A stretch of 64,000 nt of DNA from a bacterium (GCA_013360215.1 JABWCP010000012.1:1-64000); one strand, 5' to 3'; positions 22,121 through 54,978 are shown, counted from the stretch's first letter. Numbers and translations: made by a program. The notes: generated by a model from the sequence alone, not told the origin.

Positions 22121-23053
22121 CTAATAAGATTCTTGAAAGCAGTTTATTTTTCTGCGCCAGGGGCGATAACGCCTGTCCGCATACGCGGATCGTGATAAAC
22201 GTTTAGGAAGTGCAGTAAACGCTTGCATGTGGTCCAACGGGTGATCAATCTGGTTGAATTCACGTGCTTGCAATTGGATATATTGCAGCGTGGGATTGAT
22301 ACTGCGATGACCGAGTACACGCTGGATCGTCATCAGATCCGTACCGTTTTCATAAAGATGTGTCGCCAAGCTATGACGCAGGGCATGCATATTGAGTTGT
22401 TTACTGAGCCGGCTTCTTTTTTGTAATGTACGGAAAAGCCCTTGCACATAACGATCGGCAAGCGGTTCATCCCCTATTTGCCCTGGAAAAAGCCACCGTT
22501 GCTTCGGTTGCGTACGCAGATAATTTTCTATATGAATTAAAAGCGTCGCATTCATAGGTACATAACGCGCTCTGCCGCCTTTGGCATAGCGCACCAAAAT
22601 AAGCATGCGCTCCCGATCAATGTCGCGCTGCCGAACATGCAAAAGCTCATTCAATCGCATACCCGTCGCATAAATCATCATAAAAATAAGCCGATATTTT
22701 GCGTTAGGTTCATGCGTCAAAAGCCGCTCGACTTCACTAATGGACAGAACAACCGGAAGGCGTTTCTCACGCGTCGGTCGCGGCATCGGAAAATGATTGA
22801 TAACCACGCCCAAGGTTTGTTCGTATAGAAACTTTATCGCGCTATAGACGATATTAACGCCGGACCAACTGTAGTTTTTTGTTTCACGCAAAAACATAAG
22901 ATATCGCCCAATCTCGTCGTCGCGGATAGTTTCTGGCGCTTTTTGAAAATGCATCAAAAAACAACGCACTCTGTAGGTGTACACGTCAACCGTTCTATCA
23001 CTCATGTTTCTCAATTTCATTTCCATGACCATACGTTGAATAATATTTTCCAT
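22121..23053 (-). CDS. Tyrosine recombinase with N-terminal SAM-like domain (type often found beside IS91-family transposases); no transposase here
   Basis: LRNMSDRTVDVY, LPVVLS, YATGMRLNE, KGGRAR, HALRHSLATH, LGH..I..T..Y; lacks the integron-specific insertion. Confidence 0.88.
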   Translation of the reverse strand: MENIIQRMVMEMKLRNMSDRTVDVYTYRVRCFLMHFQKAPETIRDDEIGRYLMFLRETKNYSWSGVNIVYSAIKFLYEQTLGVVINHFPMPRPTREKRLPVVLSISEVERLLTHEPNAKYRLIFMMIYATGMRLNELLHVRQRDIDRERMLILVRYAKGGRARYVPMNATLLIHIENYLRTQPKQRWLFPGQIGDEPLADRYVQGLFRTLQKRSRLSKQLNMHALRHSLATHLYENGTDLMTIQRVLGHRSINPTLQYIQLQAREFNQIDHPLDHMQAFTALPKRLSRSAYADRRYRPWRRKINCFQESY

Positions 23054-26783: not shown

Positions 26784-26826
26784 ACAATCGCCATGATCAC
26801 AAATGTTCATGGCGATTGTCCTTTTT
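26784..26826 (+). terminator. Terminator of the pnt operon
   Basis: 13-bp stem ACAATCGCCATGA/TCATGGCGATTGT followed by CCTTTTT. Confidence 0.7.
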
Positions 26827-26843
26827 ATCCTTTATCTTTTTTT

Positions 26844-28496
26844 ATGAAGCGTTTTACTATCGTACGTTATCAACGCATCGTGTATTGTACAGGTCTGTAT
26901 TTGGCCATTTTCATTTGGTTAGGATCAGCACCATCCGTCATCGCGCAGCGTTCATTTAAAATGCCAAATGAAACCGGTGCAATTGCACAAGAGCGCCCTT
27001 CCGGTAATTCGATCGGTGTTATTACCACAACCGGCGATACAGTTTTTATCGCTGCAGGAAGCAATCTCAATATCACCACAAATGCGGGTGCGGCATGGAA
27101 CATCATCGGACGCTCTGACGGATTATACAAGGGTTCGCCTGTCGCCATCACGCATCATAAATCCGTTTTGTATGTAACGACGGCTTACGATTCGTCCCTC
27201 GCCATTGAACCAACCTACGGTGTCAGTGGCGGTATTTCCATTTCCAAAGATTTCGGCAACACGTGGTCGCATATTGCGCAACCCACTGACACCGGCACCA
27301 TTCGGGGCCCCGTCGTACGCACGGATGCACGTACATCGCAGCCGATCGTTCTTAATTTGGTACGTGATGTGATGCGACGGCAAACGGGTTTCCTTACCGA
27401 TTCGATCTACGTCGTTACGATCAAGTCGGCGATAGATAATATCACGTTTGATATCGCTGTCAACGACAGTTCGATTTGGCTGGCCGCATTTGCCGGCGGA
27501 CTCCGTCGCGCACGTATCGCCTTGGACGGCACGATCGGATATTTCACGCCAATGCCATTGCCGCCCGACTCGCTGCTTGAAATTAAAGCCGACCGCGATT
27601 ATGATTTTTCGATCGACCCTTTAGAGCATTACAATCATCGCGTTTTTTCGGTGATCAGCGCACGCGATGGCATATGGTGCGGTTCGGCCGGCGGTATCAA
27701 TTTTTCGTCCGATTTCGGTCAAACATGGAAACGCTATACGTCCGATCAACACCATATCAGCGGTAATTTTGTCACCGCCTTAGCTGAACAATTTTATACC
27801 GAATCCGGTTCGCTGCATCGGGTTATTTGGGCAGGGACCAACCGCGCCCTGAGTTCGGCCGAAGAATCCGGCGTTTCTTTTACTACCGATTCGGGTGCGA
27901 CATGGCAAACTTCGCTTCGCGGTTATTTTGTCAATAACATTACTTTTGACGGAAAAACAGTGTACGTTGCTACGTCGGACGGTCTTTTTCGCTCGTCGAA
28001 CCTCGGCCAAAGTTGGGAACGTTTTATTACCATTATAGATCAAACAAGCGGCGATCGTATTTTTACGAGCGAATTTACAACCATCGGTGTCACTCCTAAA
28101 TCCGGAACGCATACTATCTTTGCAGGAACCTATGATGGTTTGGGCATTTCTACTGATGATGGCGTGACGTGGACCATACCGCGTGCGTATGCCAAGCCCG
28201 GGCAAAAAGGAAATCCATCTTCATACGCATATCCTAACCCTTTCTCTCCGAAGTATGGCATCACACGATTCCAATTTGACAAAGACGACCTTTCATCCGA
28301 CGATCGTGTCACGTTATCCATCTATGATTTTTCTATGACACCGGTCGTCACACTTGTCAAAAACGCACCGATTGATCAAACCATTTTCTGGAATGGCAGG
28401 AACCAAAAAGATCAACGCGTTGCCAATGGTACGTATATTTATATTATCGAAGCGGGGAAAAAGAAGTTTCACGGCAAAGTAACGGTGAGAAAATGA
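26844..28496 (+). CDS. Secreted Asp-box/BNR beta-propeller protein with C-terminal FlgD-Ig / T9SS-like sorting domain
   Basis: Repeated S.D.G.TW Asp-boxes; C-terminal YAYPNPFSP...IYD...WNGRN...VANGTYIY; track ATG 26793 lies inside the terminator stem. Confidence 0.75.
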   Translation: MKRFTIVRYQRIVYCTGLYLAIFIWLGSAPSVIAQRSFKMPNETGAIAQERPSGNSIGVITTTGDTVFIAAGSNLNITTNAGAAWNIIGRSDGLYKGSPVAITHHKSVLYVTTAYDSSLAIEPTYGVSGGISISKDFGNTWSHIAQPTDTGTIRGPVVRTDARTSQPIVLNLVRDVMRRQTGFLTDSIYVVTIKSAIDNITFDIAVNDSSIWLAAFAGGLRRARIALDGTIGYFTPMPLPPDSLLEIKADRDYDFSIDPLEHYNHRVFSVISARDGIWCGSAGGINFSSDFGQTWKRYTSDQHHISGNFVTALAEQFYTESGSLHRVIWAGTNRALSSAEESGVSFTTDSGATWQTSLRGYFVNNITFDGKTVYVATSDGLFRSSNLGQSWERFITIIDQTSGDRIFTSEFTTIGVTPKSGTHTIFAGTYDGLGISTDDGVTWTIPRAYAKPGQKGNPSSYAYPNPFSPKYGITRFQFDKDDLSSDDRVTLSIYDFSMTPVVTLVKNAPIDQTIFWNGRNQKDQRVANGTYIYIIEAGKKKFHGKVTVRK

Positions 28497-29467
28497 TCAT
28501 ACTGCGGCGCTATTTATATATTCCCACAAGTTATTTGATTTGGATGCAATGGATGGTTTTCAGCATTACAACCGCCGCGGCTTTGTATGCCGGAGATAAT
28601 GGTGGACGCGCAGGGTCCTTCCTTCGCCTGGGATTAGGTCCGCGTGCACGCGCTATGGGTGATGCGTACACGGCATTAGCTGATAATGTGTACGCCCCAT
28701 ACTACAATCCCGCAGGACTGCCTCTGATTGTTCAGCCGGAGGTTGCTGTTTCAACTGGTATTTTGAGTTTTGATCGCCAATTCACTTCTGCAGGATTTGC
28801 CAAGTTTCTTCCGCCCAAAGCAGGATTTGGGATTAACGTACTGCGCAGCGGTTTCGGCGAAAGCGATGTACGCGATGCCGATGGCAACGCTACCGGCGAA
28901 CACATCGAGGATACACAGTACACCGTGATGTTCGGGTTCGCATTACGTTTCAGTGAAAAATTTTCAGCCGGTATCGCACCGCAATGGATTCACTCCCGGA
29001 TTTACGATGTGACCGCTTCGTCCGTCGGATTAAATGTCGGAGCTTTGTATCAATATTCTCCGGTTTGGTCGTTCGGTATTTCACTCAAAAATCTTTTACA
29101 AAAACTTCAATACTCCCGCAATGCAACCGGGCTCGGCGATGAAACCACGGTGGACAAGCTTCCGGCAACATTACGACTCGGCGTCGCACATCATCATTCG
29201 CTCAACGAAAATTTCTCGTTGGTCGCATCCTATGATCTGGAAAAAACATCCGGTTACACATTGGCGCATCACTTTGGAGCTGAGATCGGCTGGCAAAACA
29301 AATTTTTCTTACGCACAGGCTTGGATCAATACGATTGGACGGCGGGATTGGGAATCCCGTTTGATACGTTTGGGGAAAAACTCATCGTGGATTACACTGT
29401 TATATTGGACGGGCGCAACGGCATTAGTACCGTATCGCACGACATGGGGCTCTACGTCAGATTTTGA
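28493..29467 (+). CDS. PorV/PorQ (UPF0164)-like outer-membrane beta-barrel
   Basis: FLRLGLGPRARAMGDAYTA...YYNPAGL signature; LPATLRLG; C-terminal F. Confidence 0.8.
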   Translation: MIILRRYLYIPTSYLIWMQWMVFSITTAAALYAGDNGGRAGSFLRLGLGPRARAMGDAYTALADNVYAPYYNPAGLPLIVQPEVAVSTGILSFDRQFTSAGFAKFLPPKAGFGINVLRSGFGESDVRDADGNATGEHIEDTQYTVMFGFALRFSEKFSAGIAPQWIHSRIYDVTASSVGLNVGALYQYSPVWSFGISLKNLLQKLQYSRNATGLGDETTVDKLPATLRLGVAHHHSLNENFSLVASYDLEKTSGYTLAHHFGAEIGWQNKFFLRTGLDQYDWTAGLGIPFDTFGEKLIVDYTVILDGRNGISTVSHDMGLYVRF

Positions 29468-29559: not shown

Positions 29560-32364
29560 TTATAATGCTTTTATCACAACGACCGTCTCGTCATCGTGCT
29601 GCATGGCTTCACCGGTAAACGAATGCACATCATCAATGATCCGATGCACCAACATCTCCGCTGAGGAATCCGGTTTTTCATCAATTAGTTTCAATAACCG
29701 CTCTTCACCGTATTCATGACGATGAATATTGTGCGCTTCGATCACGCCATCCGTTACAAAAACAAAGACATCCCCTGGTGCATAAGCGAATTCTTTCTCT
29801 TCCAGATTTTCCTCAAATGTCCCGTCATCGGTTATGCCCAATCCTACTCCTAGCGGCGTAATAAGCTCCACCTTGCGTTGGGATGCATTGTAACAATACA
29901 ACGGTAAGTGCCCTGCACGTGCGAGACGAATTTTTTTCTCTTCCAATAGAAACGTTGCACCGATCGAAGTGACAAATGATTTTTTCTCCAGATCACGACA
30001 TAAAATACGATTGGAACGAATAAACAATTCGCGCGGTGTCAGATCAAAGCTGTTGAGCGAATGAATAATACCCTGCACCTTGGACATATATAACGCCGCT
30101 GACGTGCCTTTGCCGCTCACATCGCCTACGATAACAGTAAACTTATCCGGTTTACCGTTGAGATAATCGAAATAATCACCGCCCACCTCGAGCGCCGGTA
30201 CCGAGCGCCCTGCGATTTCCAAACCTCTCACGTTCGGTGTTTTTTGAGGCAATGACTCCAACTGAATGCGACGGGCGATATTCAGCTCATGCTTCAAACG
30301 ATCTTGCTCGGCAAGATTCTCATACAAAAAGGCATTCTCGATCGCAACCGAAGCTTGTTTGGCGACCGTCGTCAAAAACATAAGATCATCATGATCAAAC
30401 GGCGATTCCGACATGCGTTCCCCGACGATAATCGCGCCGACAGTGTGCTCTTTTGAGCGAATCGGTATCACAAAACGAAAACCGCATTGGCGCAATTCGT
30501 TGCGCAGCGGTCCCGGTAAATTATCCACATTGATCGTAGCTGTTGACGTATTGGCACGCACAGCCGCCATAAGAGGTTGATCCGACTTCGAGCATAACGC
30601 CTGCCACGCGCCGGATTCATACCCATATACTTCACTGCAACACAACGATTTTTCATCCCGATAAAAAACGACGCCGGCCATTTTGAGATGCATGAGCGAA
30701 GCTAATTTTTCAACCATTCCGCGCGCCAAATCATTCATATTAAGATTGGTCGCCATCACCTCCGCAAGCTCTGCCGCCGCACGCCGGTAGTCGTGATGGG
30801 ATCGGTGAAATTTATAATCGATCCAACGTTGGCCCCATGATCGCAGGCGTACCCAAACAAACGTCATCAAAACAGCTAATAGTATCAGAACGACTTTAAG
30901 AATTTGCATGCGTTCATCCGCACTTACAGGTACATCCGTAATTTCGACAGAAGATTCCGTAAAACGGATATTAGGCAAATCCATATTCGAAGTGACCGCT
31001 ATGACAATCAATTGTACAGCGCCGTACACCACGGTTAAATTCCAAACCAGCGATGCGATTACATATTGCACATTACGACGCACACGGAAGTTTAGCTCCA
31101 TCAAGTGGTATCGTGCGATCGTATAAAGATGCGCGAGAGGGATCAGCGCAAAGAAGAATCCGGCATAACCGAAAAGGTAACCACGTCCTGAATTACCGTC
31201 ACTGAAAAATGTCAGTACATAACCCAAAACAGCGCATGCGAAAGCAATCCAACCGCTCAGACGCGAAACCGAACGATATGAGGATGAAAAATACGACTTG
31301 TAACGCAATCGGATAAATATATAATACACCATCATCGCAATACCGCTTACAAACGCGGCAAACGCTTGTTGGTAAACTACAATTCCGATAAACGTTATCG
31401 CCGATATGCCATAGGGTACGATGGCTACCCATTTTTTCTGAATTAATTCCTGAACGGAAAACGGAAAATATAATCGGCTGTGCATCAGCATGGCCATACC
31501 AAGTACGAGGCTCCACCATCGCACATTGGTCACAAATACTCCGAATGGTGTAGTACTCAAGGATCCCCGCTCACCTAAAAGCGACAACATCATTCCGATA
31601 AGAAAAAAAGCCATTCCCAAAAGCACTGCCGCTGTGGTATCCGCGCGTTTGTAAACCAAAAATGATCCTACTAATATATACACGAGACCGGCGCCATAAA
31701 TCACCAACAGAAAAAATGGTATGCCAAACTTGGCCAGCGTAACATCCAAGGTAATGATTTGGTTGTCGCGCAAAATATCGTAAGCAATGGTCTTACCGAT
31801 TTGTCCGGATGACAGAATTCGATCCGCTTCGATCGCCGATTTGAATGTTCGCCCGTTGATACGAACAATCAAATCACCGACCAACATGCCCGCGCGATCG
31901 GAAGCGCCGTTGTGGGCCACTTCACGCACATGCGCCGTAAAAGGAATTTCATGATAAAAACTATCCGGGGCATCTTTCCGGATAAAATTGGCCACGAACA
32001 TCTTGGATGCTTTGGAGCGAAAAACAATGGCGTTGATTTTTTCTTCAGATCCGACGCGTTTCAAAAATCGGGCTATGGAATCCTGATCTTTCCAAAAGAT
32101 ACCGCCGACGGATACGAGCAAGTCGCCTGCATATACGGAATCGCGAATAAATACACCTGTCGTATCGCGTTTTTGATAATAACTGATATCGGCCGGAAAA
32201 CTGCGAAAGATGTATAGCTGAGACGGTGCATCATCAAAAATATTTTCATCTGTCGGAGAAGCGGCAAAACGATAAAAATTGACAACGACTAAGACTACGG
32301 CAGCGATCATAAAGGCTGTCAGAAAAATGCGCCGAAATAGGAGGTGTGTGGGCTTCATGGTCAT
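29560..32364 (-). CDS. Membrane sensor PP2C (SpoIIE/RsbU-type) phosphatase with PDZ, multi-TM and GAF domains
   Basis: ASDRAGMLVGDLIVRING (PDZ); ~9 TMs; GAF ending ENAFLY; ARRIQ, VGGDYFD, VGDVSGKG, RAGH, TDGV, DDET. Confidence 0.88.
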   Translation of the reverse strand: MTMKPTHLLFRRIFLTAFMIAAVVLVVVNFYRFAASPTDENIFDDAPSQLYIFRSFPADISYYQKRDTTGVFIRDSVYAGDLLVSVGGIFWKDQDSIARFLKRVGSEEKINAIVFRSKASKMFVANFIRKDAPDSFYHEIPFTAHVREVAHNGASDRAGMLVGDLIVRINGRTFKSAIEADRILSSGQIGKTIAYDILRDNQIITLDVTLAKFGIPFFLLVIYGAGLVYILVGSFLVYKRADTTAAVLLGMAFFLIGMMLSLLGERGSLSTTPFGVFVTNVRWWSLVLGMAMLMHSRLYFPFSVQELIQKKWVAIVPYGISAITFIGIVVYQQAFAAFVSGIAMMVYYIFIRLRYKSYFSSSYRSVSRLSGWIAFACAVLGYVLTFFSDGNSGRGYLFGYAGFFFALIPLAHLYTIARYHLMELNFRVRRNVQYVIASLVWNLTVVYGAVQLIVIAVTSNMDLPNIRFTESSVEITDVPVSADERMQILKVVLILLAVLMTFVWVRLRSWGQRWIDYKFHRSHHDYRRAAAELAEVMATNLNMNDLARGMVEKLASLMHLKMAGVVFYRDEKSLCCSEVYGYESGAWQALCSKSDQPLMAAVRANTSTATINVDNLPGPLRNELRQCGFRFVIPIRSKEHTVGAIIVGERMSESPFDHDDLMFLTTVAKQASVAIENAFLYENLAEQDRLKHELNIARRIQLESLPQKTPNVRGLEIAGRSVPALEVGGDYFDYLNGKPDKFTVIVGDVSGKGTSAALYMSKVQGIIHSLNSFDLTPRELFIRSNRILCRDLEKKSFVTSIGATFLLEEKKIRLARAGHLPLYCYNASQRKVELITPLGVGLGITDDGTFEENLEEKEFAYAPGDVFVFVTDGVIEAHNIHRHEYGEERLLKLIDEKPDSSAEMLVHRIIDDVHSFTGEAMQHDDETVVVIKAL

Positions 32365-32531
32365 AACTTATGGCTTAGAACGCAATGCTGCAAGCTTCAA
32401 AAAATACTCTAACAAAGGTTACGCGCTATGATAAAAAAAGATTCACTATTTATATGCGCATCCGGTTCATGCCCACTGGAATACGTTCCGATTACCGCCG
32501 CGCAGAACATACTGATACATTACAATTCATT

Positions 32532-33371
32532 CTATCGTATCACATGCATTCCCGATAGCGTCAAAATCAATATGCCGAGAACGATACGATAAACGATAAA
32601 AATCGTCGTCGAACGTGTCTGTAGCCATTTGATCAGAAAAGCAATGGAAGCATATCCGACGATACCGGCGACAAGCGTGGCTACGAAAAGATGAATCAAC
32701 CCTTCGTCACCGAGACCGTATTTAATAAGGTCTTTTAGTTCGAAAAGCCCGCTGGCTAGCACGGCAGGGATCGAAAGTAGAAACGAAAATCGTGCGGCGC
32801 TTTCACGCGTCAAACCTAGAAATAATCCGGCCGTGATCGTCACTCCCGAACGCGATGCGCCCGGTATCAATGCAACAGCCTGCGCAAGCCCGATGATCTG
32901 GGTATCTTTAAAATCCATGTCGGTAATACTACGACGATGCTTGGCCACCACCTCCGCCAATGCTAAGATCACAGCCAGTCCGATCAGACTCCATCCTATG
33001 ATGGTGAGGCTGCGAAAATCGGTTTCAATCGTATCTTTGAAAATAATTCCCAGTATTCCGAGCGGCAAGGTTCCAAGTGCAATAAACCAAGCCATTCGTA
33101 CGTCCTGTCGTAACTCGGCATCCCATTGCGCTTTCTGACTCCATCGTGTCACAGAAAAAAAAGCCGCTTTGATAAGGCGGATAATATCGTTTCTAAAAAA
33201 GATAAGCACCGCCATCAGCGTCCCAAGCTGTGTCACCGCCGTCACGGCGGCGCCGGGATCTGACCAACCCAAAAGCGCCGGCACGATGCGAACATGCGCC
33301 GTACTGCTGATCGGCAAAAATTCAGTAAGTCCTTGTATGATACCGATCACTATCGCTTGAAAAAAATCCAT
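32532..33371 (-). CDS. uppP: Undecaprenyl-diphosphate phosphatase
   Basis: QGLTEFLPISSTAH, PGASRSG, AARFSFLLSIP. Confidence 0.95.
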   Translation of the reverse strand: MDFFQAIVIGIIQGLTEFLPISSTAHVRIVPALLGWSDPGAAVTAVTQLGTLMAVLIFFRNDIIRLIKAAFFSVTRWSQKAQWDAELRQDVRMAWFIALGTLPLGILGIIFKDTIETDFRSLTIIGWSLIGLAVILALAEVVAKHRRSITDMDFKDTQIIGLAQAVALIPGASRSGVTITAGLFLGLTRESAARFSFLLSIPAVLASGLFELKDLIKYGLGDEGLIHLFVATLVAGIVGYASIAFLIKWLQTRSTTIFIVYRIVLGILILTLSGMHVIR

Positions 33372-33398
33372 ACGTTTCCTGAAGTTTAAAGTAACAAT

Positions 33399-33432
33399 AA
33401 AAAAGCCCTACACCAATGATGTAGGGCTTTTT
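33399..33432. terminator. Terminator after mglA (A/T tracts on both sides)
   Basis: AAAAAAGCCCTACA...TGTAGGGCTTTTT. Confidence 0.75.
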
Positions 33433-33449
33433 TCCGCATATCAGAAAAA

Positions 33450-34034
33450 TTATAATTGTGTTTGAACGTTGGCAATCACTTTATTGATGATCGCTTTGAG
33501 TGTGTCAAAAACACCGACACCTTTGATACCGACGGCTTCATAATAAGGTACATTAAAATAATTGAGGCGTTTTTGAAGATTTTCTACTGTATCAACATCC
33601 GGAAGATCGCGCTTATTGTACTGGATCACCCAAGGAAACGAGTCCAGCGAGTGGCCGTCTTCACGCAGATTGTTTTCCAGATCAAGCAAGGTTTCAATAT
33701 TGCCGTCCATACGATGCTTTTGTGAATCGGCAACGAAAACGATACCGTCCACGCCGTTGAGAATAACTTTACGGCTGGAGGCGTAATAAACCTGACCGGG
33801 AACGGTGTATAAATTAAATTTCGGTTTTTTACCTTTGATACGACCGACTTCAAGTTGTAAAAAGTCGAAAAATATCGTACGATCTTCTTTGGTTTTAAGC
33901 GATACGAGTTCGCCGGCCAGCGAGGGATCCATTTTGGAATGGATGTATTCCAAATTGGTCGTCTTGCCGCTCATACCGGGGCCGTAGTACACTATCTTCA
34001 GATTGATCTCTTGTAATGCCCAGTTGATAAACAT
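33450..34034 (-). CDS. mglA: MglA-family small GTPase
   Basis: KIVYYGPGMSGKTTN, RTIFFDF, YTVPGQVYY, NKRD; closely resembles Myxococcus MglA. Confidence 0.93.
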   Translation of the reverse strand: MFINWALQEINLKIVYYGPGMSGKTTNLEYIHSKMDPSLAGELVSLKTKEDRTIFFDFLQLEVGRIKGKKPKFNLYTVPGQVYYASSRKVILNGVDGIVFVADSQKHRMDGNIETLLDLENNLREDGHSLDSFPWVIQYNKRDLPDVDTVENLQKRLNYFNVPYYEAVGIKGVGVFDTLKAIINKVIANVQTQL

Positions 34035-34084
34035 TCGTATCCTCTCTAAGGTTTTATGGTTGAATCAGCAGACCGGATAATCCG

Positions 34085-34600
34085 TTATTTAAACGATTCG
34101 TCGAGTGCATCCCCGAGGAGCGAACCGAATTCGGAGTCAATCAGGTCTTTTGCGGAATCATCGCTGGAATTGGAAGAATCTTCAAAAATTTCAATCAGAT
34201 TCTGGATGGCTTTTTTCGTGTAAATACGAATGAGGCCGAGCGTTACGCTGGTATCAAACACGACGACGAGGAAAAAATTGTCGCCGACATTGGAAAGATA
34301 AACATTGCGTTTTTCACCCTCGTGAAAAAGCAATTTGAACTTAGCGTCTTCGCCGACAAGTTTGGCCATTTCCGCCGTCGCTGCAAAATCCGATGCAGCT
34401 AACGCCGAAAGCACTGTCGTGTTCATTTTGTCCGTATTGCCGCGCTGGCTGATGAGCTGGCCGCTCATATCCGCAAAAAGAATCGCCGAAGCTTTCGTTT
34501 TCGACGCCAGCTCAGACAAAACTTTGGTAACGCCCTCAAATTGTTTCCCGTTGAGAATAATTTGCTTGCTACCGTCTTTCAATTTTTTCGTCTGCAACAT
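34085..34600 (-). CDS. mglB: MglB roadblock/LC7 protein
   Basis: FADMSGQLI, LSALAASDFAATAEMAKLVGE, LFHEGEK, TLGLIR; acidic C-terminal helix. Confidence 0.9.
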   Translation of the reverse strand: MLQTKKLKDGSKQIILNGKQFEGVTKVLSELASKTKASAILFADMSGQLISQRGNTDKMNTTVLSALAASDFAATAEMAKLVGEDAKFKLLFHEGEKRNVYLSNVGDNFFLVVVFDTSVTLGLIRIYTKKAIQNLIEIFEDSSNSSDDSAKDLIDSEFGSLLGDALDESFK

Positions 34601-34735
34601 AGCGGTTACCCTTTGCTCTGGTTATGGTAATCTTAAAAGAATAATCAAAATTGGATCTTGATAAGCGGACGTGCATCGCATTACGGATTAACAACCGTAA
34701 CCTATGGAATTTTCGTCCTTTAGTCAAATAATTTT

Positions 34736-35482
34736 TTAACCGGCCTTTTTCTTTCGCAAACGTTCGATAGCCGCTTTCAACGATTCACGCAAACGCTCAA
34801 TCGCATCCGCCAAATCACCGATTTCATCGGTCGCTTCGACGCGCACGATGGATTCCAGATCGCCTTTACTGATCTGCTCGGCCGATTCCGTCAGATACAA
34901 TAGCTGTTTGGTAAGCGCGTTCGAAAGATACAACGCGACGATCATACCGAAAACCACGGCCAGAGCGAGTACGCCGCCCACTAAAAGCGCCGTAGCACGG
35001 ATCGTGTCATCAATAAATTTTCCGGACATTCCGACGTGTGCATTGCCCAACGTACCGGCGCCGATCGGTGTGGAAATTTCGTAGGTTTCTGTATTTTCGA
35101 CTTGTGTCAAGTCAATCTTATAATCACCGCCGCCGTCAATCACGGCCGCTTCTACCATCGTGCGTTGATTGTACGAACCGACTTTAAATTTCTGTGCAAC
35201 CACTTTATTTTCTTTGTCGGAAATATACACGTAAGATACGGCGGTAAAACCGGAAGCTATATCCACGAGATTCTGGATGTCCACTTCATCATCGCCGACC
35301 AGCGGACGTTCCACCTGTTTGGACAGTGTGGTCACGATCGCTTTGCCGCGCTCTGTCAGTTCGGACTGCAGTGAACCCGACACCAACTGTACCACAAGAA
35401 TGGTAATCGTGATACCGGCAATCAACGCACCGCTCACGATCACGAGCGGCACTTTCCATTTTAGGCTTAGTCCTTTGGCCAT
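34736..35482 (-). CDS. Two-TM sensor with periplasmic (Cache-like) domain and HAMP, no output domain
   Basis: TM1, ~130-aa periplasmic region, TM2, HAMP (LTESAEQISKGDL...DEIGDLADAIERLR), short basic tail. Confidence 0.85.
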   Translation of the reverse strand: MAKGLSLKWKVPLVIVSGALIAGITITILVVQLVSGSLQSELTERGKAIVTTLSKQVERPLVGDDEVDIQNLVDIASGFTAVSYVYISDKENKVVAQKFKVGSYNQRTMVEAAVIDGGGDYKIDLTQVENTETYEISTPIGAGTLGNAHVGMSGKFIDDTIRATALLVGGVLALAVVFGMIVALYLSNALTKQLLYLTESAEQISKGDLESIVRVEATDEIGDLADAIERLRESLKAAIERLRKKKAG

Positions 35483-35492
35483 AATCGTCCGA

Positions 35493-36296
35493 TCACAATG
35501 TACGGATTTGTTTGAGCATCAGTTGTTTAAAGGCCAATTGTTTGGCCGGATCGTAGATCTCATTGGCGATCGCCTCCACCAACGGCGGCACTTTGTCTTT
35601 GGGAAACGTTCTCTGATCTTCGCCAAACGTCTCAACCACGTCGTCGATAATGATCGAGGCCACCGGCCCGATCAATTGAATCAATTCATTTTCCAGGTTC
35701 TTGAAAAATGCAGAGGATACGTTTTGTTTATCGGCCGACGCTGTAGCGCCTGAAACTGCCGTGATCAACCCGGCTTCGGCCAGCATGTATACGATCCCCG
35801 CCACATCCATATCTTTCATACCAAGACGCGAGGATAACTCATCCACGGAATATTCGTCTTTTTCTAAGAGATGTAGCAATTCCCAGTCTTTAGCTTTAAG
35901 ACGAATGGTCGGCGAAGGTTCATTATCTGTTTTACGAAATTTGACGCGGAACGAAGGTATGTGGCGTGCAATTTTTTGCCAGGCTTCATACTCTAACGTC
36001 GCTTCCGTGATGAGCTTGCCTGTTTCCTTATCAATGCTTTTCTGAAGCGACGCCACATCCGGTTCAAATGAAAACTTACCGCTGGTCCAGAGTATCAACT
36101 CGTGGAAGGCGGGTTCGCCGAGATAGGTATCGCACACGGCATGGACGATACGCTTATTGGCCAGATAAATTTCCCCATTTTCGCGTTGATCGCCGCGCTC
36201 CAGCAAAATGCGTCCTGTACGGTCACCTGCGACCAATAACTTGACGATGCTCAGCACGTCAACGTGAGATAAATTTCCGGAGAGAACGGTTGCCAT
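35493..36296 (-). CDS. DUF4388 (PATAN-like) protein with central winged-helix-like segment and helical C-terminal domain
   Basis: LSGNLS...RTGRI...GEIYL....VHA...GEPAF..LILWTSGKFSF; SVDELSSRLGM...IVYMLAEAGLI. Confidence 0.78.
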   Translation of the reverse strand: MATVLSGNLSHVDVLSIVKLLVAGDRTGRILLERGDQRENGEIYLANKRIVHAVCDTYLGEPAFHELILWTSGKFSFEPDVASLQKSIDKETGKLITEATLEYEAWQKIARHIPSFRVKFRKTDNEPSPTIRLKAKDWELLHLLEKDEYSVDELSSRLGMKDMDVAGIVYMLAEAGLITAVSGATASADKQNVSSAFFKNLENELIQLIGPVASIIIDDVVETFGEDQRTFPKDKVPPLVEAIANEIYDPAKQLAFKQLMLKQIRTL

Positions 36297-36318
36297 GGAT
36301 CAGGCCCGCACGTGTTGG

Positions 36319-36756
36319 TTAATTGACAACTTCGACCAGTGCCCAGCTTTCCGCATCCATATTGCTCCGCACCAGAAAACTGCGGCGGGACGCTTCAACT
36401 TTACTGAGTCTTTTTTGAAATTTTTTATCGGCTTCCAGATCCGCCAGCGCCACATTGACCGTGAGGCGCAGCATCGCCACGCTCACATTGGGCTGACACA
36501 GAATGATCAAGTTAAAATTACTCATCGGATAGGCGATGACGCGCCCATTATCGTATTTGAGATCGTATTCATGCAGCGGCGTGGAGAGGCGATCAAACAT
36601 GGCCGCCACCTGGATCACATCGCGCGCGATTTCCACATACGTCGCTTCGTCAAAACCTTGCGGCATATTGGCATACACCGTTTCGCCGTCATTAAAATAA
36701 ATAAATGAGGTTTTGACACCGTTGACGCTATTGATTTCTTCGAGTTTGTCTTTCAT
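36319..36756 (-). CDS. Roadblock/LC7-like protein
   Basis: LEEINSVNGV..SFI...DGE, LIILC.PNVSVAMLRL pattern. Confidence 0.65.
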   Translation of the reverse strand: MKDKLEEINSVNGVKTSFIYFNDGETVYANMPQGFDEATYVEIARDVIQVAAMFDRLSTPLHEYDLKYDNGRVIAYPMSNFNLIILCQPNVSVAMLRLTVNVALADLEADKKFQKRLSKVEASRRSFLVRSNMDAESWALVEVVN

Positions 36757-36777
36757 AATCCTGTCCGTGGAAAACGC

Positions 36778-37440
36778 TTATTCGGAAACTTTTTGAATAC
36801 CGGGCGCTTTTTCTATTGCCTGCTCGATCAGATCCGCTGCCGCTTTTTGTTCTACGGTCAGCGTGATAATATCGTCATGCCACTTGGAAATAATTTTTCG
36901 ATCATTTTTGCCCGTTACGATGCCAAACTTATACGTGCCTGATTTGGAAGCACGGCCTATCTTAGCCAGTTTGCGCATTATAAAACCCATACCGGCAGAG
37001 GTGCGTTTTCCGTTGGCAATGCCGTCTTCCATCAGAATCTCGCCCTGCGGTGACGATACCAGCACCGCGTTTACGCCGTTGATGGTTTTGATGTCACGGG
37101 TAAACTTGGCCATGGCTTCGCCTTTGGCTTCTAAGGCTTCATCAATCAGGCGAAGGCCTTCCATCATCAGATTGCCCCACGGTGCATTGATCGTACGCTT
37201 CGGTGAAGCAACACCGTTTTCGACTTTAAAAGGGCCTTCTTTGATAGCTAATATTTTATACACGGCATCTTCACCTTCTACAGCACCAAATGTCGCGTGT
37301 ACGATATTACCTTCCGCAAAATAAATACGTCCGACCGCATTGCGTAATTCGACCGTAAACATCGCTTCGTTCTTTTCCATACAGTTCAGTTGAACGATGT
37401 TGGTCAATTTGAGATCTCTTAGATTTCCTACAAGCGCCAC
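36778..37440 (-). CDS. DUF4388 + roadblock/LC7 fusion protein
   Basis: LVGNLRDLKL, GRIYFAEGNIVHA, GEDAVYKIL, LMMEGLRLIDE; then IKTINGVNAVLVSSPQGEIL. Confidence 0.78.
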   Translation of the reverse strand: MALVGNLRDLKLTNIVQLNCMEKNEAMFTVELRNAVGRIYFAEGNIVHATFGAVEGEDAVYKILAIKEGPFKVENGVASPKRTINAPWGNLMMEGLRLIDEALEAKGEAMAKFTRDIKTINGVNAVLVSSPQGEILMEDGIANGKRTSAGMGFIMRKLAKIGRASKSGTYKFGIVTGKNDRKIISKWHDDIITLTVEQKAAADLIEQAIEKAPGIQKVSE

Positions 37441-37457
37441 GTCAATACCCTTTATTC

Positions 37458-37832
37458 TTATTTCAACGCTTCGGCAATTACGCTTTTCATCATCTTGATT
37501 TCAAACGGTTTTTCGATATAGCGGTATGCGCCAAAACTCAGCGCTTCCTCTTTTTTTTCATCCGAACCGTATGCCGTCATGATAATCACATGCGTCTGCG
37601 GGCGTTCTTTTTTTACGCGTTTGAGCAATTCGATCCCGCTGATGCCGGGCATGGTAATATCCGTCAATATCAGATCAAACGGATGTTCGGCAAATTTTTC
37701 CCACGCTTCGGTACCGGAGGAAGCTGTCACGACTTCGTAATTTTCTTTAGATATGATAAAACTCTGGTAGAGACTAAACGTAAGCGTCTCTTCGTCATCT
37801 ACAATCAAAATTCGCTTTAAAGTACCCGACAT
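37458..37832 (-). CDS. Single-domain response regulator (receiver only)
   Basis: ILIVDDE, DLILTDITMPG, IMTAY, YIEKPF. Confidence 0.93.
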   Translation of the reverse strand: MSGTLKRILIVDDEETLTFSLYQSFIISKENYEVVTASSGTEAWEKFAEHPFDLILTDITMPGISGIELLKRVKKERPQTHVIIMTAYGSDEKKEEALSFGAYRYIEKPFEIKMMKSVIAEALK

Positions 37833-38038
37833 AAGGCCTCAGATTGCCATTGAAAAAAACATTTGTTTTAATAATTACAAAACCGAACTGCATCGGTTTA
37901 ACAGACACCATACGCTTAATAATTTGAAATTTTATGTTTGTGACCGATGATTGGAATCTTTACTGCAATGAATTGCGTAATGATTATTCGGGTATTCTTT
38001 CAGACTTTCAAATTACAAGATAAATTAAATAGCGGGGA

Positions 38039-38068
38039 AATATATGAAAAGCGAATGGAGATTGTCAA
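38039..38068 (-). promoter_or_regulatory. sigma70-type promoter TTGACA-N18-TATATT for the receiver/mgl cluster
   Basis: Consensus -35 on the minus strand about 200 bp upstream of the receiver gene. Confidence 0.45.
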
Positions 38069-38248
38069 TTGAAAAGATATGCTTCGTGAAGAATTTTCAA
38101 GACTTTAGCATCGTTTTAAGACAAAGAAACTCCTTTACTTTTTATTTTTAGCTGTGTATTTTCCCAAAATTTTGATATACCTGACTTATATTGGTTGTAT
38201 ATAGTTTCGGGTATCGTTGAGGGTGTCATCCAATAACCGGAGCAGGGC

Positions 38249-39502
38249 ATGAGTACGTGGTTAGTCGAAAAATGTAAACCGTTTTCTAACTTTGTCGAAG
38301 ATATTAAGGCCAAAGGCTTATACAGTTACTTTACGGAACTGGAACGCACCGGCACATATATCACCGTCAAAGGTCAAAATCTCGTCAATTTTTCATCCAA
38401 CGATTATTTGGGTCTTACGCATGATCCGCGTGTGATCGAAGAGGCACGCAAAGCGCTGGATATTTACGGGTCGGGACTCTGCGGATCCCGCTATGTCGTC
38501 GGCACGACCATCGAACATACGCGCTTGGAAGAAAAAATTGCCGACTGGAAGCAAAAAGAAAATTGCATTGTATTTAGTACCGGTTATCAGACTTTGCTTG
38601 GCACCGTATCGGCCATGCTGGTCAAAGCCGATGATTCGATCGAAGATAATATTGTGCTGGCCATTGACAAACTGAGCCACGCCTGTATCCTTGACGGATG
38701 CGCGCTGGCCGTAGGAACCCACATGACGCGCGGCGGAAGTACCAAAAATCTGGACGGACAGATACGGTATTTTCGACACAATGATCCGGGAAGCCTAGAG
38801 TCCATCGTTGAGTCCAGTGTCAAACGCGGTAAAAATGTGATGATCATTGTAGAAGGTGTTTACAGTATGGACGGCGACATTTGTCGTCTTCCGGATTTTG
38901 TCAATATTGCCAACAAATACGATGCGTGTATCGCCGTAGATGACGCCCATGGCACCGGTGTTTTGGGTAAAACCGGACGCGGCACGGGTGAACACTTCGG
39001 CATGGACAAAGATATTGATCTGCTGATGGGCACCTTCAGCAAAGCCCTAGGCGGCGTCGGAGGCTTTGTGTGTGGCCAGCGCGATGTGATTTCCCACATC
39101 AAACATAAAGCCCGCAGCCTCATCTTCTCCGCCGCATCCCCCGTCTCCAATATCGTTTCCGTATCCAAAATCATAGACATCATTCGTTCTGAACCCGAGC
39201 ATCTTCAAAATCTGCGCGTCAACGAGTCGTACTTCAAATCCAAACTCAAAGAATTCGGATTTAACTACGGCGACAGTGAAACACCGATCGTACCGATCAT
39301 CATCGGTGACTCGGAAAAAACGATGTACATTTCCAAAAAATTGTACGAGAACAATATTCTCATGCTGCCGATGATTTTCCCTGCCGTTGCGCGCGGCCAG
39401 GAACGTCTTCGCTGTACGATCAGCGCCAAACATACGCGCCAGGATTTAGATCACGCCTTGGACGTGCTCTACACGGAAGGTAAAAAAATCGGCGTTATCT
39501 GA
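38249..39502 (+). CDS. Alpha-oxoamine synthase (serine palmitoyltransferase/BioF/Kbl family)
   Basis: FSSNDYLGL, SHACILDG, EGVYSMDGD, VDDAHG.G, GTFSKALG (PLP Lys). Confidence 0.88.
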   Translation: MSTWLVEKCKPFSNFVEDIKAKGLYSYFTELERTGTYITVKGQNLVNFSSNDYLGLTHDPRVIEEARKALDIYGSGLCGSRYVVGTTIEHTRLEEKIADWKQKENCIVFSTGYQTLLGTVSAMLVKADDSIEDNIVLAIDKLSHACILDGCALAVGTHMTRGGSTKNLDGQIRYFRHNDPGSLESIVESSVKRGKNVMIIVEGVYSMDGDICRLPDFVNIANKYDACIAVDDAHGTGVLGKTGRGTGEHFGMDKDIDLLMGTFSKALGGVGGFVCGQRDVISHIKHKARSLIFSAASPVSNIVSVSKIIDIIRSEPEHLQNLRVNESYFKSKLKEFGFNYGDSETPIVPIIIGDSEKTMYISKKLYENNILMLPMIFPAVARGQERLRCTISAKHTRQDLDHALDVLYTEGKKIGVI

Positions 39503-39653: not shown

Positions 39654-41396
39654 ATGACAAAAAAATCGGTCGGTAATTTTATCCTCGTCCTGCATACGCA
39701 TCTACCCTATGTGCTGCATCATGGTCAATGGCCGCATGGCATGGAGTGGCTTTATGAAGCCGCGTCCGAAACTTATATTCCGCTGCTCAATGCCCTGAAT
39801 GCATTGCAAAACGAAGGCCGCCGGCCGCGCCTTACCATCAGCATGACTCCGGTCATTACCGAACAACTTGCGAGCGAAGCGTTTAAAAAAGAATTTGTCG
39901 CTTTTTTGTACGATGAGATTGAACGCGCCCGCACGGATATGGTGTCTTTTGAAAAAAGTCCGACGGAGAAAAAGTTAGTTTCGCTGGCGGAATATTGGTT
40001 GGATTTTTATCAAAATACGCTCAAAGATTTTACACTCACATACCGCCATGATTTAATCGGCGCGTTTCGCACCTTACAGGATCAAGGCGTACTTGATATC
40101 ATCACCTGCGGTGCTACCCACGGATATTTTCCTCTCCTCGGTACCGATGCCAATATCCACGCGCAAATCCGAATGGCCGTCGTGACACATGAAAAATATT
40201 TTGGTCGTAAACCGCGCGGAATATGGCTTCCGGAATGCGCCTATCGCCCCCGGTATGTATGGACACCGCCCGTGGCTTCGGCGCTTGGCTCCGAGCCGCG
40301 TCTTCGTAAAGGTATCGAGGAAATACTGGACGCTAACGGTTTGGAATATTTTATCGTTGATTCCTCGCTCGTCGAGCCGGGTCGGGCCGTACCGATGTAC
40401 ATGGGACGGTTTGAAAATCTACGCAAACTGATGATGCGTTTGGCCAGTGAAAATCGCCCGATACCTAAAGCGGATTTTCTGCAATCGGTATATGATGTCT
40501 ATAAAACCAAATCATCGTACGACGCACCCGGTAATCCCGTTTCCATTTTTGCAAGGGATATGGAAACATCCATGCAGGTTTGGTCCAGTGAACAAGGTTA
40601 TCCCGGCGGCGAATGGTATTTGGATTTCCATAAAAAGCACGAGCAAAGCGGACACCGCTACTGGCGCGTCACCAGTCTTGAGGCCGATCTCGGTCTAAAA
40701 GCACCATACGAGCCTCAAAAAATCCAATCGGCCATCGCCGATGATGCACAGCATTTTGTGCAAGCCGTGCGTCAGGCACTCACTCGATTTAAAACAAAAC
40801 ACGGATACGAAGGCACGCTTACCGCTCCTTTCGATTCCGAGCTTTTCGGGCATTGGTGGTTTGAAGGTCCCGGTTTTCTCAAAACCATCTTCGAACTGAT
40901 GGATGACGATCCCGCAATCCAAACTATGCATTGCGCCGAATCGTTGGATCAGAATCCGCCTGAAAAAATCATCGCTATTCCGGAAGGCAGTTGGGGTGCG
41001 GGCGGCAACCACTATGTGTGGTTTAATCATGAGGTGGATTGGATGTGGCCTTTTATCTACAATGACGAAGCGGCTATGCGCGATCATGTGCAGCGATGGA
41101 ACAATAATACCGATCCCGAATGGACCGCGATCATCAAACAAATGGTGCGCGAACTTTTTCTTCTCGAATCTTCCGATTGGCCTTTTTTGATCAGCACGCA
41201 GTCGGCGATAGATTATGCGACCGAGCGCTTTATGGAACATCATACTGCTTTTGAAAAATTAGCACGTCTGTCCGAATATCATTGTAACGGTTCTGCATTG
41301 CATCCGGACGACCGCGCCTGGTTACGCGAAATCACATCGCAAGATCACATTTTTGATGATGCGCTGATTGATCCGAATTGGTTTTTGAACGATTGA
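39654..41396 (+). CDS. GH57 1,4-alpha-glucan branching enzyme (DUF1957 C-terminus)
   Basis: HTHLPYV, ETYIPL, THGYFPL, GIWLPECAY, FDSELFGHWWFEG, ESSDWPF. Confidence 0.9.
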   Translation: MTKKSVGNFILVLHTHLPYVLHHGQWPHGMEWLYEAASETYIPLLNALNALQNEGRRPRLTISMTPVITEQLASEAFKKEFVAFLYDEIERARTDMVSFEKSPTEKKLVSLAEYWLDFYQNTLKDFTLTYRHDLIGAFRTLQDQGVLDIITCGATHGYFPLLGTDANIHAQIRMAVVTHEKYFGRKPRGIWLPECAYRPRYVWTPPVASALGSEPRLRKGIEEILDANGLEYFIVDSSLVEPGRAVPMYMGRFENLRKLMMRLASENRPIPKADFLQSVYDVYKTKSSYDAPGNPVSIFARDMETSMQVWSSEQGYPGGEWYLDFHKKHEQSGHRYWRVTSLEADLGLKAPYEPQKIQSAIADDAQHFVQAVRQALTRFKTKHGYEGTLTAPFDSELFGHWWFEGPGFLKTIFELMDDDPAIQTMHCAESLDQNPPEKIIAIPEGSWGAGGNHYVWFNHEVDWMWPFIYNDEAAMRDHVQRWNNNTDPEWTAIIKQMVRELFLLESSDWPFLISTQSAIDYATERFMEHHTAFEKLARLSEYHCNGSALHPDDRAWLREITSQDHIFDDALIDPNWFLND

Positions 41397-54500: not shown

Positions 54501-54789
54501 ATATTCCGATTACGATAAAACAATACGCGTAGATTTGGGCATGAATGAACTTAAAATCATAATTCGAATCACGGATGAAGGTCCCGGAATGACTACCGAC
54601 GATATGAAAAAACTTTTCGGTAAATTTCAACGTCTTTCAGCCAAACCTACCGGCGGAGAGACATCTACAGGCTTGGGTTTGTCTATCGTCAAACAAATCG
54701 TCGAAATGCATGAAGGCCAGGTTTGGGCCGAAAGTGAATTCGGTAAAGGCAGTACCTTTGTCGTGGAGTTGCCAAGATTCACTTCATAG
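51592..54789 (+). CDS. Sensor histidine kinase with periplasmic double beta-propeller (Reg_prop) and Y_Y_Y domains
   Basis: Repeated D..G.LWIGT..GL; YYY region; TM; ASHDLKNP, NLISNAIKY, DEGPG, TGLGL. Confidence 0.92.
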   Translation: MSITSKKIFRRLFCFFLFLFMLAADTKALDPERSVTQYVHDVWLKEDGLPGISVLSFYQTREGYLWIGSFEGLARFDGAKFTLFNRRSIDAFLSYGLWRILEDKHGYIWMGTNGNGIYRFKDPNFQRLAVTNGLTNDNVLSLAMDQDEIVWAGTRKGLNRIRIISQDSFAVEPVMYRSNVLQDVFGLCTDHDGTVWIGATNTIYRYVEGRLEEFANIGERIRSMYVDRDNRIWIGTTNPGVFQISENQLRHFTTKNGLPPESIWRVWYDRDGNVWLGSDGMGLFRAKPGSFRDENELISLEQFSEKEGLTNNRISALFEDREGSLWIGTFRGGLNRLRDGKFITYASANGMVHPVVYPIVQEHNGDMWFGTEGGLSHYSGNRFVNYTTANGLSNNQVRGIVRDSRGRLWVGTYGAGLDIFNPASGRFAPAPSAINHAFRNIRDMLKDREGHLWIGTINSIGLIKPDGSHRTFTMQDGLLTTSILCLYEDIYGNVWAGTDGGGAARYDRNKGFFRVLTMKDGLSSDIVFAIHCDRDSVYWFATQSGITRYDPRATDLPFASLTVRQGLPADAAFEILEDNHGYIWLGGAEGIFRISKKDFEDVARGKTNQLTPLLFGRPDGMKTSQTTPSGRAHKTSDGKLWFPTPKGAVVIDPDKIKTNPVPPPVVIERCIADGQSWPIQNDVVLPPGILRIEFQYAALSFLAPQRVFHKFKLEGFDTDWMDAGTRRTAFYTGLHPGEYTFKVIACNNDGIWASEPTSFSFTIRPHFYETRWFLLLIFGGMIAAALSLYRWRVRHLMHREKELAALVKLRTHNLEEEKKRTEDARIEAERQREEALRANELKTQFLGMASHDLKNPLAAIISYTDLIIEAYDDKAQSMRDLGYIRKAAHRMLHLINGLLNTVSLESGKVVLQKEKLDVSDLVEQVLFSNQQMLERKRQHVQVQTVPGLYVNADRDRLYEALDNLISNAIKYSDYDKTIRVDLGMNELKIIIRITDEGPGMTTDDMKKLFGKFQRLSAKPTGGETSTGLGLSIVKQIVEMHEGQVWAESEFGKGSTFVVELPRFTS

Positions 54790-54978
54790 CAAACGAATCA
54801 TTTTATCGTTTATACAAGGAAAGACCCATCATACAACCAACTCCGATCCGACCGGATTGAATTTTTAATAAAACGGCGGATCGCCACTCACTGTAGCGAC
54901 CGAGTTTGAATTGGAAATCAAGTTGGCAAAGGCAGCATATCCATTTTGAATTACATATAAAAAAATCATAGTGTATTT

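Follow-up and report, generated by a model that had tools for sequence, protein, structure and literature searches.

A conserved seven-gene cluster as a probable input and adaptor module of an MglA/MglB switch in an uncultured Bacteroidota lineage

How signals reach GTPases of the MglA type is understood in just one organism, and there the picture is under revision. RomR sequesters MglB, MglB shows both GTPase-activating protein (GAP) and guanine nucleotide exchange factor (GEF) behaviour, and RomRX, which had long passed as a GEF, was redefined in 2026 as an effector that binds MglA-GTP (PMC13408092). According to a survey of these GTPases (Wuichet & Sogaard-Andersen 2014, PMC4316618), some MglA genes of groups 1 and 5 are found near PATAN genes, and the link between MglB and PATAN is credited to Makarova et al. 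2006. Table S2 of the survey gives '<PATAN:MglB-<MglA<MglB' for Ctha_0398 of Chloroherpeton thalassium, as well as 'PATAN>MglB>MglA>', and similar PATAN-MglB-MglA sets are recorded in Chlorobi, Chloroflexi, Aquificae, Gemmatimonadetes (Gemmatimonas) and delta-proteobacteria; the table lists no group 1 MglA under Bacteroidetes (PMC4316618). PATAN domains also occur fused to receiver (REC) domains, and the PATAN regulator PixE interacts with the pilus motor ATPase PilB1 (10.1101/2021.06.11.447907). In the conservons, or AGPS (CvnA-D), genes for a membrane protein with HAMP, for a roadblock protein, for an HTH-like adaptor and for an MglA-type GTPase occur together (PMC13343842, PMC4316618). Here we describe a bacterial gene cluster in which an mglBA pair follows five genes for putative signalling proteins. 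It lies in a stretch of 64,000 nucleotides (GCA_013360215.1 JABWCP010000012.1:1-64000), referred to below as the window, for which a prediction had earlier been made from the bare sequence. Literature searches found no experimental study of a PATAN/DUF4388-roadblock-MglA(B) or a roadblock-HAMP-MglA-receiver neighbourhood, in agreement with this original prediction, which knew of no characterised system of such composition.

Seven co-oriented open reading frames (ORFs) on the minus strand occupy 33450-37832 (Table 1), all of them where they had been predicted, and the plus strand across the cluster holds only short overlapping ORFs, the longest of 153 amino acids (aa). In order they encode a receiver (g1), a PATAN-roadblock fusion (g2), a second roadblock protein (g3), a three-domain PATAN protein (g4), a HAMP membrane protein (g5), MglB (g6) and MglA (g7). 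ORF, Pfam, PDB and model evidence bore out this gene list and nearly all of the domain calls. The gaps from g1 to mglA were 17, 21, 22, 10, 135 and 50 nucleotides (nt), the last being the distance from mglB to mglA; the predicted range of 10-50 nt was correct, and the 134 nt given for the gap before mglB should read 135. It appears that the cluster is a lineage-conserved module dedicated to the input and adaptor functions of the MglA/MglB switch in an uncultured lineage of Bacteroidota. We consider this explanation fairly probable, with a mechanism that we infer.

The order of the genes supports this reading. One profile search of genome contigs with the g4 alignment returned 15 loci, 14 of them related. 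These 14 are from metagenome-assembled genomes (MAGs), are 52-58% identical to g4, and carry the label Bacteroidota/Bacteroidetes in 11 cases and only 'bacterium' in three, which is in line with the predicted FCB-type host. The remaining locus, L015 from a delta-proteobacterial MAG, was rejected as a relative, having only a 158-aa ORF resembling a winged helix with DUF8082 (L015:9923-10399) and no mglAB by tblastn. Gene order in the loci was read by tblastn with the window proteins. The order g1 to g7 was identical in 14/14 related loci as far as the contigs reach, so that the lack of synteny which was to refute the original prediction was not seen; all seven genes were present in nine of the 14, and the other five were cut by contig ends and uninterrupted up to there. 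No gene was missing or inverted inside any contig of the 14 loci in the tblastn comparison, where the g3 match in L009 covers residues 54-145 only.

The proteins differ widely in how well they are conserved. Identity to the window protein by tblastn was 94-97% for MglA, 96-100% for MglB, 82-86% for REC, 61-79% for g5, 62-70% for g2, 62-81% for g3, 52-58% for g4 and 66-73% for UppP, the product of the gene that usually follows mglA; some of these values come from partial matches at contig ends, for example a 27-residue g3 fragment in L008. The mean aa identity was 0.959 for MglA, 0.977 for MglB, 0.848 for REC and 0.674 for g3, and the identity at four-fold sites was about 0.38 for all four alike and 0.31 for UppP. 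Judged from these sites, MglA and MglB are under very strong purifying selection. Recent horizontal transfer, which was considered as a cause of their 96-98% identity, is ruled out by a four-fold identity of just 0.38. It also follows that the cluster is more than a chance arrangement, since the order of the genes has been kept in all 14 loci despite saturated synonymous sites. Of the 11 loci whose contigs reach past mglA, 10 have uppP there, in two cases with a methyltransferase gene inserted, and beyond it the flanks vary among the loci. As these outer flanks are not conserved, it is the linkage of the block itself that has been preserved. The inserted gene (L003:12905-14134 and L005:13005-14252) encodes a PCMT-like protein of about 410 aa between mglA and uppP. 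In L014 uppP is not found at the position after mglA, where there is instead a pyruvate:ferredoxin oxidoreductase gene.

An MglA protein is defined by its P-loop, NKxD motif, switch I Arg and switch II Gln, and by a Thr that replaces the Asp in DxxGQ. The MglA of the window matched M. xanthus MglA 6hjh over residues 2-189 (E 8.8e-72), and GPGMSGKT, R52 and T53 (RTIFFDF), TVPGQ81 and NKRD were invariant in 12/12 sequences; the catalytic Arg and Gln that the original prediction had pointed out are both present and kept throughout. Going by the closeness of this match, we read the protein as an MglA of the group 1 polarity type. MglB contains Robl_LC7 (PF03259, E 5.6e-12) and matched M. xanthus MglB 6hjm over residues 11-167, including the C-terminal extension (E 7.8e-25), and also 3t1r (2.7e-15). 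It scored 80.2 bits with the NCBIfam equivalog for the Thermus-type MglB, below the cut-off of 200, and is therefore not of that type. It is 96-98% identical to 12 orthologues. The acidic C-terminal tail, residues 136-171, has a net charge of -9. Across the loci almost every residue of MglB is fixed, the tail included. A protein that is near-invariant, 98% identical, while its synonymous sites are saturated suggests that almost the whole MglB surface is engaged by partners.

Two further proteins of the cluster carry roadblock domains. In g2, residues 5-101 are DUF4388/PATAN (PF14332, E 9.6e-20, 71.3 bits, cut-off 25), and a profile of 29 sequences (A5) matched PDB Roadblock/LC7 structures with its C-terminal half, the best being 9jue_D (E 2.9e-4, positions 96-214); most of the other 35 PDB matches listed were roadblock proteins, dynein-LC7 among them. 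JGI gives several g2 homologues the name 'Roadblock/LC7/MglB family', and in one of the homologues (P0119) both PF03259 and PF14332 are present. There is also a group of 212-aa PATAN-roadblock proteins, 32-40% identical to g2, with one member from Calditrichales. For g3 no Pfam family was matched, and NCBIfam gave nothing for g2, g3 or g4. The AlphaFold2 model of g3, made from an alignment of 12 sequences (pLDDT 85.1, pTM 0.79), has the a-b-b-a-b-b-b-a topology of a roadblock protein, and in a Foldseek search of the PDB it gave 84 matches at E<=1e-3. The top ones were the Asgard roadblock 7yh1 (5.5e-6), LAMTOR2 (1.4e-5 to 4.6e-5), M. xanthus MglB 6hjm (3.9e-5) and MglC 7ct3 (7.4e-5). When the g3 profile was run in an exhaustive HMMER search, 277 representatives were recovered at E<=1e-3. 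When g3 was aligned with 70 remote relatives (A11, 71 members), 16/71 members matched Pfam Robl_LC7, and the widened profile matched 7yh1_D at 3.3e-6. We thus assign the C-terminal half of g2 and g3 to the Roadblock/LC7 superfamily, by fold and/or profile match.

This assignment depended on the depth of the alignments. Neither the C-terminal half of g2 nor g3 reaches the Pfam roadblock model as a window protein alone, and when the 12-sequence profiles were searched against the PDB, that of g3 matched Gtr1 alone (E 0.07) and that of g2 had no match, so deeper alignments were needed for detection. With hhalign and the shallow lineage alignments the probabilities were 7.9% for g3 against MglB, 0.2% for g2 against MglB and 25% for g2 against g3; A5 and MglB were aligned in the correct regions, but with a probability of just 4.6%. 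A complex prediction with g2 residues 105-220, g3 and MglA gave scores of 0.00 and 0.01 (mark 0.32) and yields no verdict either way. The g2 and g3 genes overlap by 4 nt in 3/12 measured junctions, which suggests that their translation is coupled.

The model of g3 shows an additional helix beyond the roadblock fold, residues 111-130, which is nearly invariant across the relatives. The best conserved part of the protein is not the roadblock core but residues 97-134, that is, the last roadblock helix and the added one, which is basic and amphipathic with the pattern KKFQKR...RRSFL.RSNMD. The added helix may serve for docking, for instance onto the acidic tail of MglB or onto the membrane.

The protein g5 has hydrophobic spans at about residues 13-33 and 165-187 in a hydropathy plot, and between them a periplasmic segment that matched sCache_3_2 with 25.5 bits, under the Pfam cut-off of 28.4. 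HAMP covers residues 186-236 and the protein ends at 248, so that the layout is a first transmembrane (TM) span, a periplasmic sCache-like domain, a second TM span, HAMP and a tail of 12 residues. The N-terminal part of WalK aligns to residues 6-241 (E 3.5e-17). A receptor without an output domain had been predicted, and 13/13 g5 orthologues indeed stop 10-12 residues past HAMP; by Pfam there is no HisKA and no HATPase_c in g5, and none of the 13 has a kinase or other output part. The clusters nearest to g5 are sCache_3_2-HAMP proteins of about 250 aa, and sizeable clusters of short proteins consisting only of sCache_3_2 and HAMP exist in Calditrichota, Binatota, Gemmatimonadota and other groups. 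An insert of 9 residues in the periplasmic domain (window ~35050-35080) is missing from g5 of the window and of L004 and is carried by the other 11 orthologues. In L001 a part of g5 is masked by a run of X.

The receiver g1 is a Response_reg protein (PF00072, E 1.4e-30), and D12, D13, D58, T86 and K108, the canonical phospho-acceptor set, were invariant in 12/12 sequences. No histidine kinase was found among the seven cluster genes in the ORF and Pfam scan, and the receiver has no cognate kinase beside it. Two adjacent and very large Reg_prop/Y_Y_Y sensor kinases, of 1065 and 1477 aa, are encoded at 51592-59412, the second one being a hybrid kinase that also contains a receiver and a further HisKA/HATPase stretch. 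This pair, about 14 kb off, holds the histidine kinases closest to g1 in the window.

In the favoured reading, the five upstream proteins would form the input and adaptor layer of the MglA/MglB switch. The HAMP protein g5 would sense a periplasmic cue and act as a membrane anchor, and a conformational signal would be relayed from it to adaptors in the cytoplasm through contacts between the proteins, with no phosphorylation involved. MglA or MglB would be the target of the g2 and g3 roadblock domains, which most likely work as a pair; domains of this kind are known regulators of MglA-type GTPases, as in the MglB and MglC structures. Those of g2 and g3 could tune the balance between GAP and GEF activity or sequester MglB, in the way that MglC and RomR do in Myxococcus. 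By analogy with the PATAN-REC fusions, g1 would gate the PATAN proteins after phosphorylation by an unlinked kinase, and together these proteins would correspond to a PATAN-REC regulator of the PatA type whose domains are distributed over several genes. The output would be cell polarity or surface motility, possibly by contact between PATAN and the pilus motor ATPase as in Synechocystis. A separate promoter in front of mglBA (P2, see below) could keep this pair constitutive while the input layer is regulated.

It is conceivable, although we find it doubtful, that the whole constitutes a kinase-free G-protein pathway coupled to a receptor, where the sCache-HAMP signal is conveyed to PATAN/DUF8082 adaptors and a Ragulator-like roadblock pair and from them directly to the nucleotide cycle of MglA, with the receiver as a second, phosphorylation-dependent gate. 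Such a logic could be widespread, since sCache-HAMP-only proteins occur in Calditrichota, Binatota and Gemmatimonadota and PATAN-roadblock fusions in Calditrichota. If true, it could also account for the role of 'output-less' HAMP receptors.

Several points weigh against a dedicated input module. Every arrow in its mechanism is of our own inference. The cluster holds no histidine kinase that could serve as phosphate donor of g1. The families of g3 (33 clusters) and g4 (29 clusters, 264-267 aa) are narrow, and the full seven-gene set may be a peculiarity of this lineage. No pilus or gliding gene was found among the 40 ORFs of the window and the 41 of 117 flank ORFs, those nearest to the cluster, that were scanned, so a motility output has no local support. 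Finally, the promoter-like motif P2 implies that mglBA can be transcribed independently of the upstream genes, with which it need not be co-regulated.

The sensor and receiver also bear on the direction of the signal. The accessory proteins could be downstream effectors or localisation factors of MglA-GTP, and MglA would then bring the PATAN and HAMP proteins to a pole or a machine. The re-assignment of RomRX from GEF to MglA-GTP effector (PMC13408092) and the interaction of PixE with PilB1 (10.1101/2021.06.11.447907) provide precedents for this. However, sensor domains in the periplasm and receivers with a phospho-acceptor typically belong to the input side, and the genes for the sensor and the receiver are placed upstream under what seems to be a promoter of their own, and we therefore find this direction unlikely.

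The protein g4 might instead place the output at the level of gene expression. Residues 6-107 are DUF4388/PATAN (PF14332, E 2.2e-14, 54 bits, cut-off 25), 31% identical to that of g2 (E 3e-9). The AlphaFold2 model (pLDDT 82.7) shows PATAN at 5-109, a helix-helix-helix-strand arrangement at 135-180, which is compatible with a winged helix, and a four-helix domain at 195-266. For the middle part, about residues 127-185, the winged helix-turn-helix (wHTH) matches in Pfam were all sub-threshold (HVO_A0114 E 0.015, Rrf2 0.028, HTH_27, TrmB, DprA_WH), no wHTH family being reached at the Pfam cut-off. A domain-level Foldseek search matched the winged helix 2yu3 with probability 0.98 but E 0.28, and the whole three-domain model gave 0 matches at E<=1e-3. 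The C-terminal domain, about 195-266 (window 35493-35700), is DUF8082 (PF26309) and is the best-conserved part of g4. Of the DUF4388-wHTH architecture originally predicted for this gene, the first domain is confirmed, the second is seen in sub-threshold matches and the model only, and the third, DUF8082, had not been listed. Elsewhere DUF8082 is fused to PatA_N, to AAA_22 ATPases, to IclR/GntR regulators and to cyanobacterial Ser/Thr kinases; the literature search found no paper that names this domain.

The third helix of the middle domain, residues 162-174, which would be the 'recognition' helix, has no Lys and no Arg, and the net charge of the protein is -8. These features suggest an adaptor with a protein-binding winged helix rather than a DNA binder, and binding of DNA by g4 is unlikely judged from the sequence and the model. 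They also speak against a conservon-like switch of expression, in which the g4 winged helix would bind DNA under the control of MglA-GTP/GDP, a state that the roadblock proteins and the HAMP sensor would determine. Group 3 MglA neighbourhoods do hold a REC-like and a wHTH protein (PMC4316618), and besides the sub-threshold matches one JGI record calls a g4 homologue an ArsR-family regulator. Nevertheless, with no wHTH at the Pfam cut-off, no DUF742, no kinase, and an MglA which is close to that of M. xanthus and which we read as the polarity type, we give such a switch even less credence than the effector alternative.

The transcription signals are best judged by their conservation, since the totals of the scan were not above those of shuffled sequence (promoters 8 vs 11.0, terminators 8 vs 7.5). 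The P1 motif, TATTGACAA...TATATT, was aligned upstream of g1 in 11/11 loci; the window copy is misaligned in the alignment (A7), yet present in the sequence. A GC-rich hairpin followed by a T-run was found after mglA in all 11 loci that extend far enough. This conservation, and not the raw counts, makes P1 and the terminator credible, and the promoter and terminator that had been predicted to enclose the cluster were thus both located. The leader of g1 is poorly conserved among the loci. An Rfam scan of 32300-38400 gave 5 weak matches, all far under the gathering scores and outside the g1 leader, and no known RNA family or riboswitch was found in either leader.

The gap between g5 and mglB is long everywhere, 106-170 nt in 13/13 loci, and apart from the ribosome-binding site its sole conserved island in an alignment of 13 sequences (A6) is P2. 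This type of motif, an A-tract with TTGACT-N17-TAnnnT, is present in the window and in 12/12 aligned loci; TTGA and the A-tract are invariant, and the consensus -10 is TAcACT, with TAGGTT in the window. The cluster is therefore probably not the single operon of the original prediction, as the conserved motif points to units of five and two genes. It is likely that g1-g5 are transcribed from P1 and mglBA from P2. The scan found no terminator-like site between g5 and P2, so that read-through from g5 into mglB is possible. That the two units are merely independent neighbours, with g1-g5 as a signalling system of its own and mglBA as a housekeeping polarity pair that lies downstream by chance, would agree with the promoter-like motif, the long gap and the far slower evolution of mglBA, but we find it the least likely of the explanations given the adjacency in 14/14 loci while the outer flanks are rearranged, the tie of the g2 and g3 roadblock fold to small-GTPase regulation, the recurrence of the PATAN-MglB-MglA association in unrelated phyla (PMC4316618) and the lack of a terminator-like site between g5 and P2.

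Table 1. Positions in the window of the cluster genes and of the predicted transcription signals.
Feature	Position	Strand	Description
g1	37458..37832	-	Stand-alone receiver (REC), 124 aa
g2	36778..37440	-	PATAN (DUF4388)-roadblock/LC7 fusion, 220 aa, GTG start
g3	36319..36756	-	Divergent roadblock protein with extra C-terminal helix, 145 aa
g4	35493..36296	-	PATAN + winged-helix-like + DUF8082, 267 aa
g5	34736..35482	-	Two-TM sCache-HAMP membrane protein without output domain, 248 aa
mglB (g6)	34085..34600	-	Predicted GAP-type roadblock protein, acidic C-terminal extension, 171 aa
mglA (g7)	33450..34034	-	Ras-like GTPase, 194 aa
P1	38039..38068	-	Sigma-70-like TTGACA-18-TATATT upstream of g1; scan match 11/12
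g1 leader	37833..38038	-	About 200 nt between P1 and g1; weak hairpin + T-rich tail 37899..37880
P2	34699..34737	-	A-tract + TTGACT (34727..34722) - 17 nt - TAGGTT (34704..34699), directly past g5 stop
Terminator	33399..33433	-	Intrinsic; 16-bp stem + T-run, 16 nt past mglA stop

The surroundings of the cluster were also inspected. A gene pair at 26793-29467 recurs near the cluster in five loci (L004, L008 and L011-L013), on rearranged sides; one gene encodes a Sortilin/Vps10-like protein and the other a TraF_2-like outer-membrane protein. The counterpart of the latter in L004 has a match to PorV, a protein of the type IX secretion system, and PorV-like counterparts lie near the block in several loci. 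Downstream of uppP, on the same strand, 29560-32364 encodes a 934-aa protein with PDZ, multiple TM spans, GAF and SpoIIE (PP2C phosphatase), which adjoins uppP only in L001. A tricorn-protease-like S41 peptidase of 1089 aa (13505-16774), a tyrosine recombinase with Phage_integrase and a SAM-like N-terminal domain (22121-23053) and a GH57 branching enzyme (39654-41396) were also found, in a window whose content is otherwise that of an ordinary chromosome.

One compact, conserved block thus encodes, beside the switch, a complete candidate input layer made up of a sensor in the membrane, a receiver, two PATAN adaptors and two additional roadblock domains. The seven proteins are small and can be expressed and reconstituted. 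They would make a test bed for the roles of PATAN and DUF8082, for the targets of output-less HAMP proteins, and for roadblock pairs as modulators of GEF and GAP activity in bacteria, as Ragulator is in eukaryotes.

The original prediction described the cluster as a conservon- or GPCR-like module. It shares with the conservons that a HAMP membrane protein, roadblock proteins, an adaptor and an MglA-type GTPase occur together. The differences are larger, since g5 lacks HisKA and HATPase, no match to DUF742 was found in g2, g3, g4 or g5 in Pfam even at E<=10, the GTPase is near to M. xanthus MglA and not of the conservon type, there are REC and PATAN domains in addition, and the host, judged by the labels of the related loci, is of Bacteroidota type and not of the Actinomycetota. 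Conservon membership is ruled out by the missing kinase core and the missing DUF742, and the host taxon also speaks against it. The eukaryotic Ragulator-Rag system is similar in combining several roadblock domains with a membrane-bound partner and a small GTPase, and the g3 model matches LAMTOR2; this is a resemblance in fold and logic only, with no orthology and no Rag-type GTPase.

In the cyanobacterial PatA-type regulators (PixG, PixE, PatA) PATAN also works with a receiver domain. Here, however, the two domains belong to different polypeptides, and the fusion partner of PATAN is a roadblock domain or a winged helix with DUF8082. As REC is a separate gene, of 124 aa in the window and also in all 11 loci that reach that far, membership of the PatA type was rejected.

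The polarity module of Myxococcus xanthus (MglA, MglB, MglC, RomR/RomX, FrzX/FrzZ) is similar as well, although the cluster does not belong to it. Its MglA, with the intrinsic Arg and Gln, and its MglB have strong counterparts here, and both systems contain an extra roadblock paralogue (MglC, an MglB paralogue, in Myxococcus) and receiver proteins (RomR). In contrast, g3 has no sequence match to MglC and resembles it by fold only, and no homologue of the RomR output region, RomX or RomY was found in the cluster, judged from domain calls only. The PATAN fusions, DUF8082 and the HAMP membrane protein of the cluster are absent from the core module in Myxococcus. The accessory genes of Myxococcus are scattered in the genome, while those of the cluster are contiguous.

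Among published descriptions the PATAN-MglB-MglA neighbourhoods come nearest; they are known from genome comparison, and the literature searches found no experimental characterisation of any of them. They are similar in having PATAN beside MglB and MglA, and the PATAN:MglB fusion of Ctha_0398 has the same architecture as g2. They differ in the order of the genes, and the entries of Table S2, in which other genes are shown as a dash, name no receiver, HAMP receptor or DUF8082 (PMC4316618). The link between PATAN and MglAB is therefore already in print, and what the cluster adds to the PATAN-roadblock-MglA theme is DUF8082, a receiver and a HAMP receptor without output.

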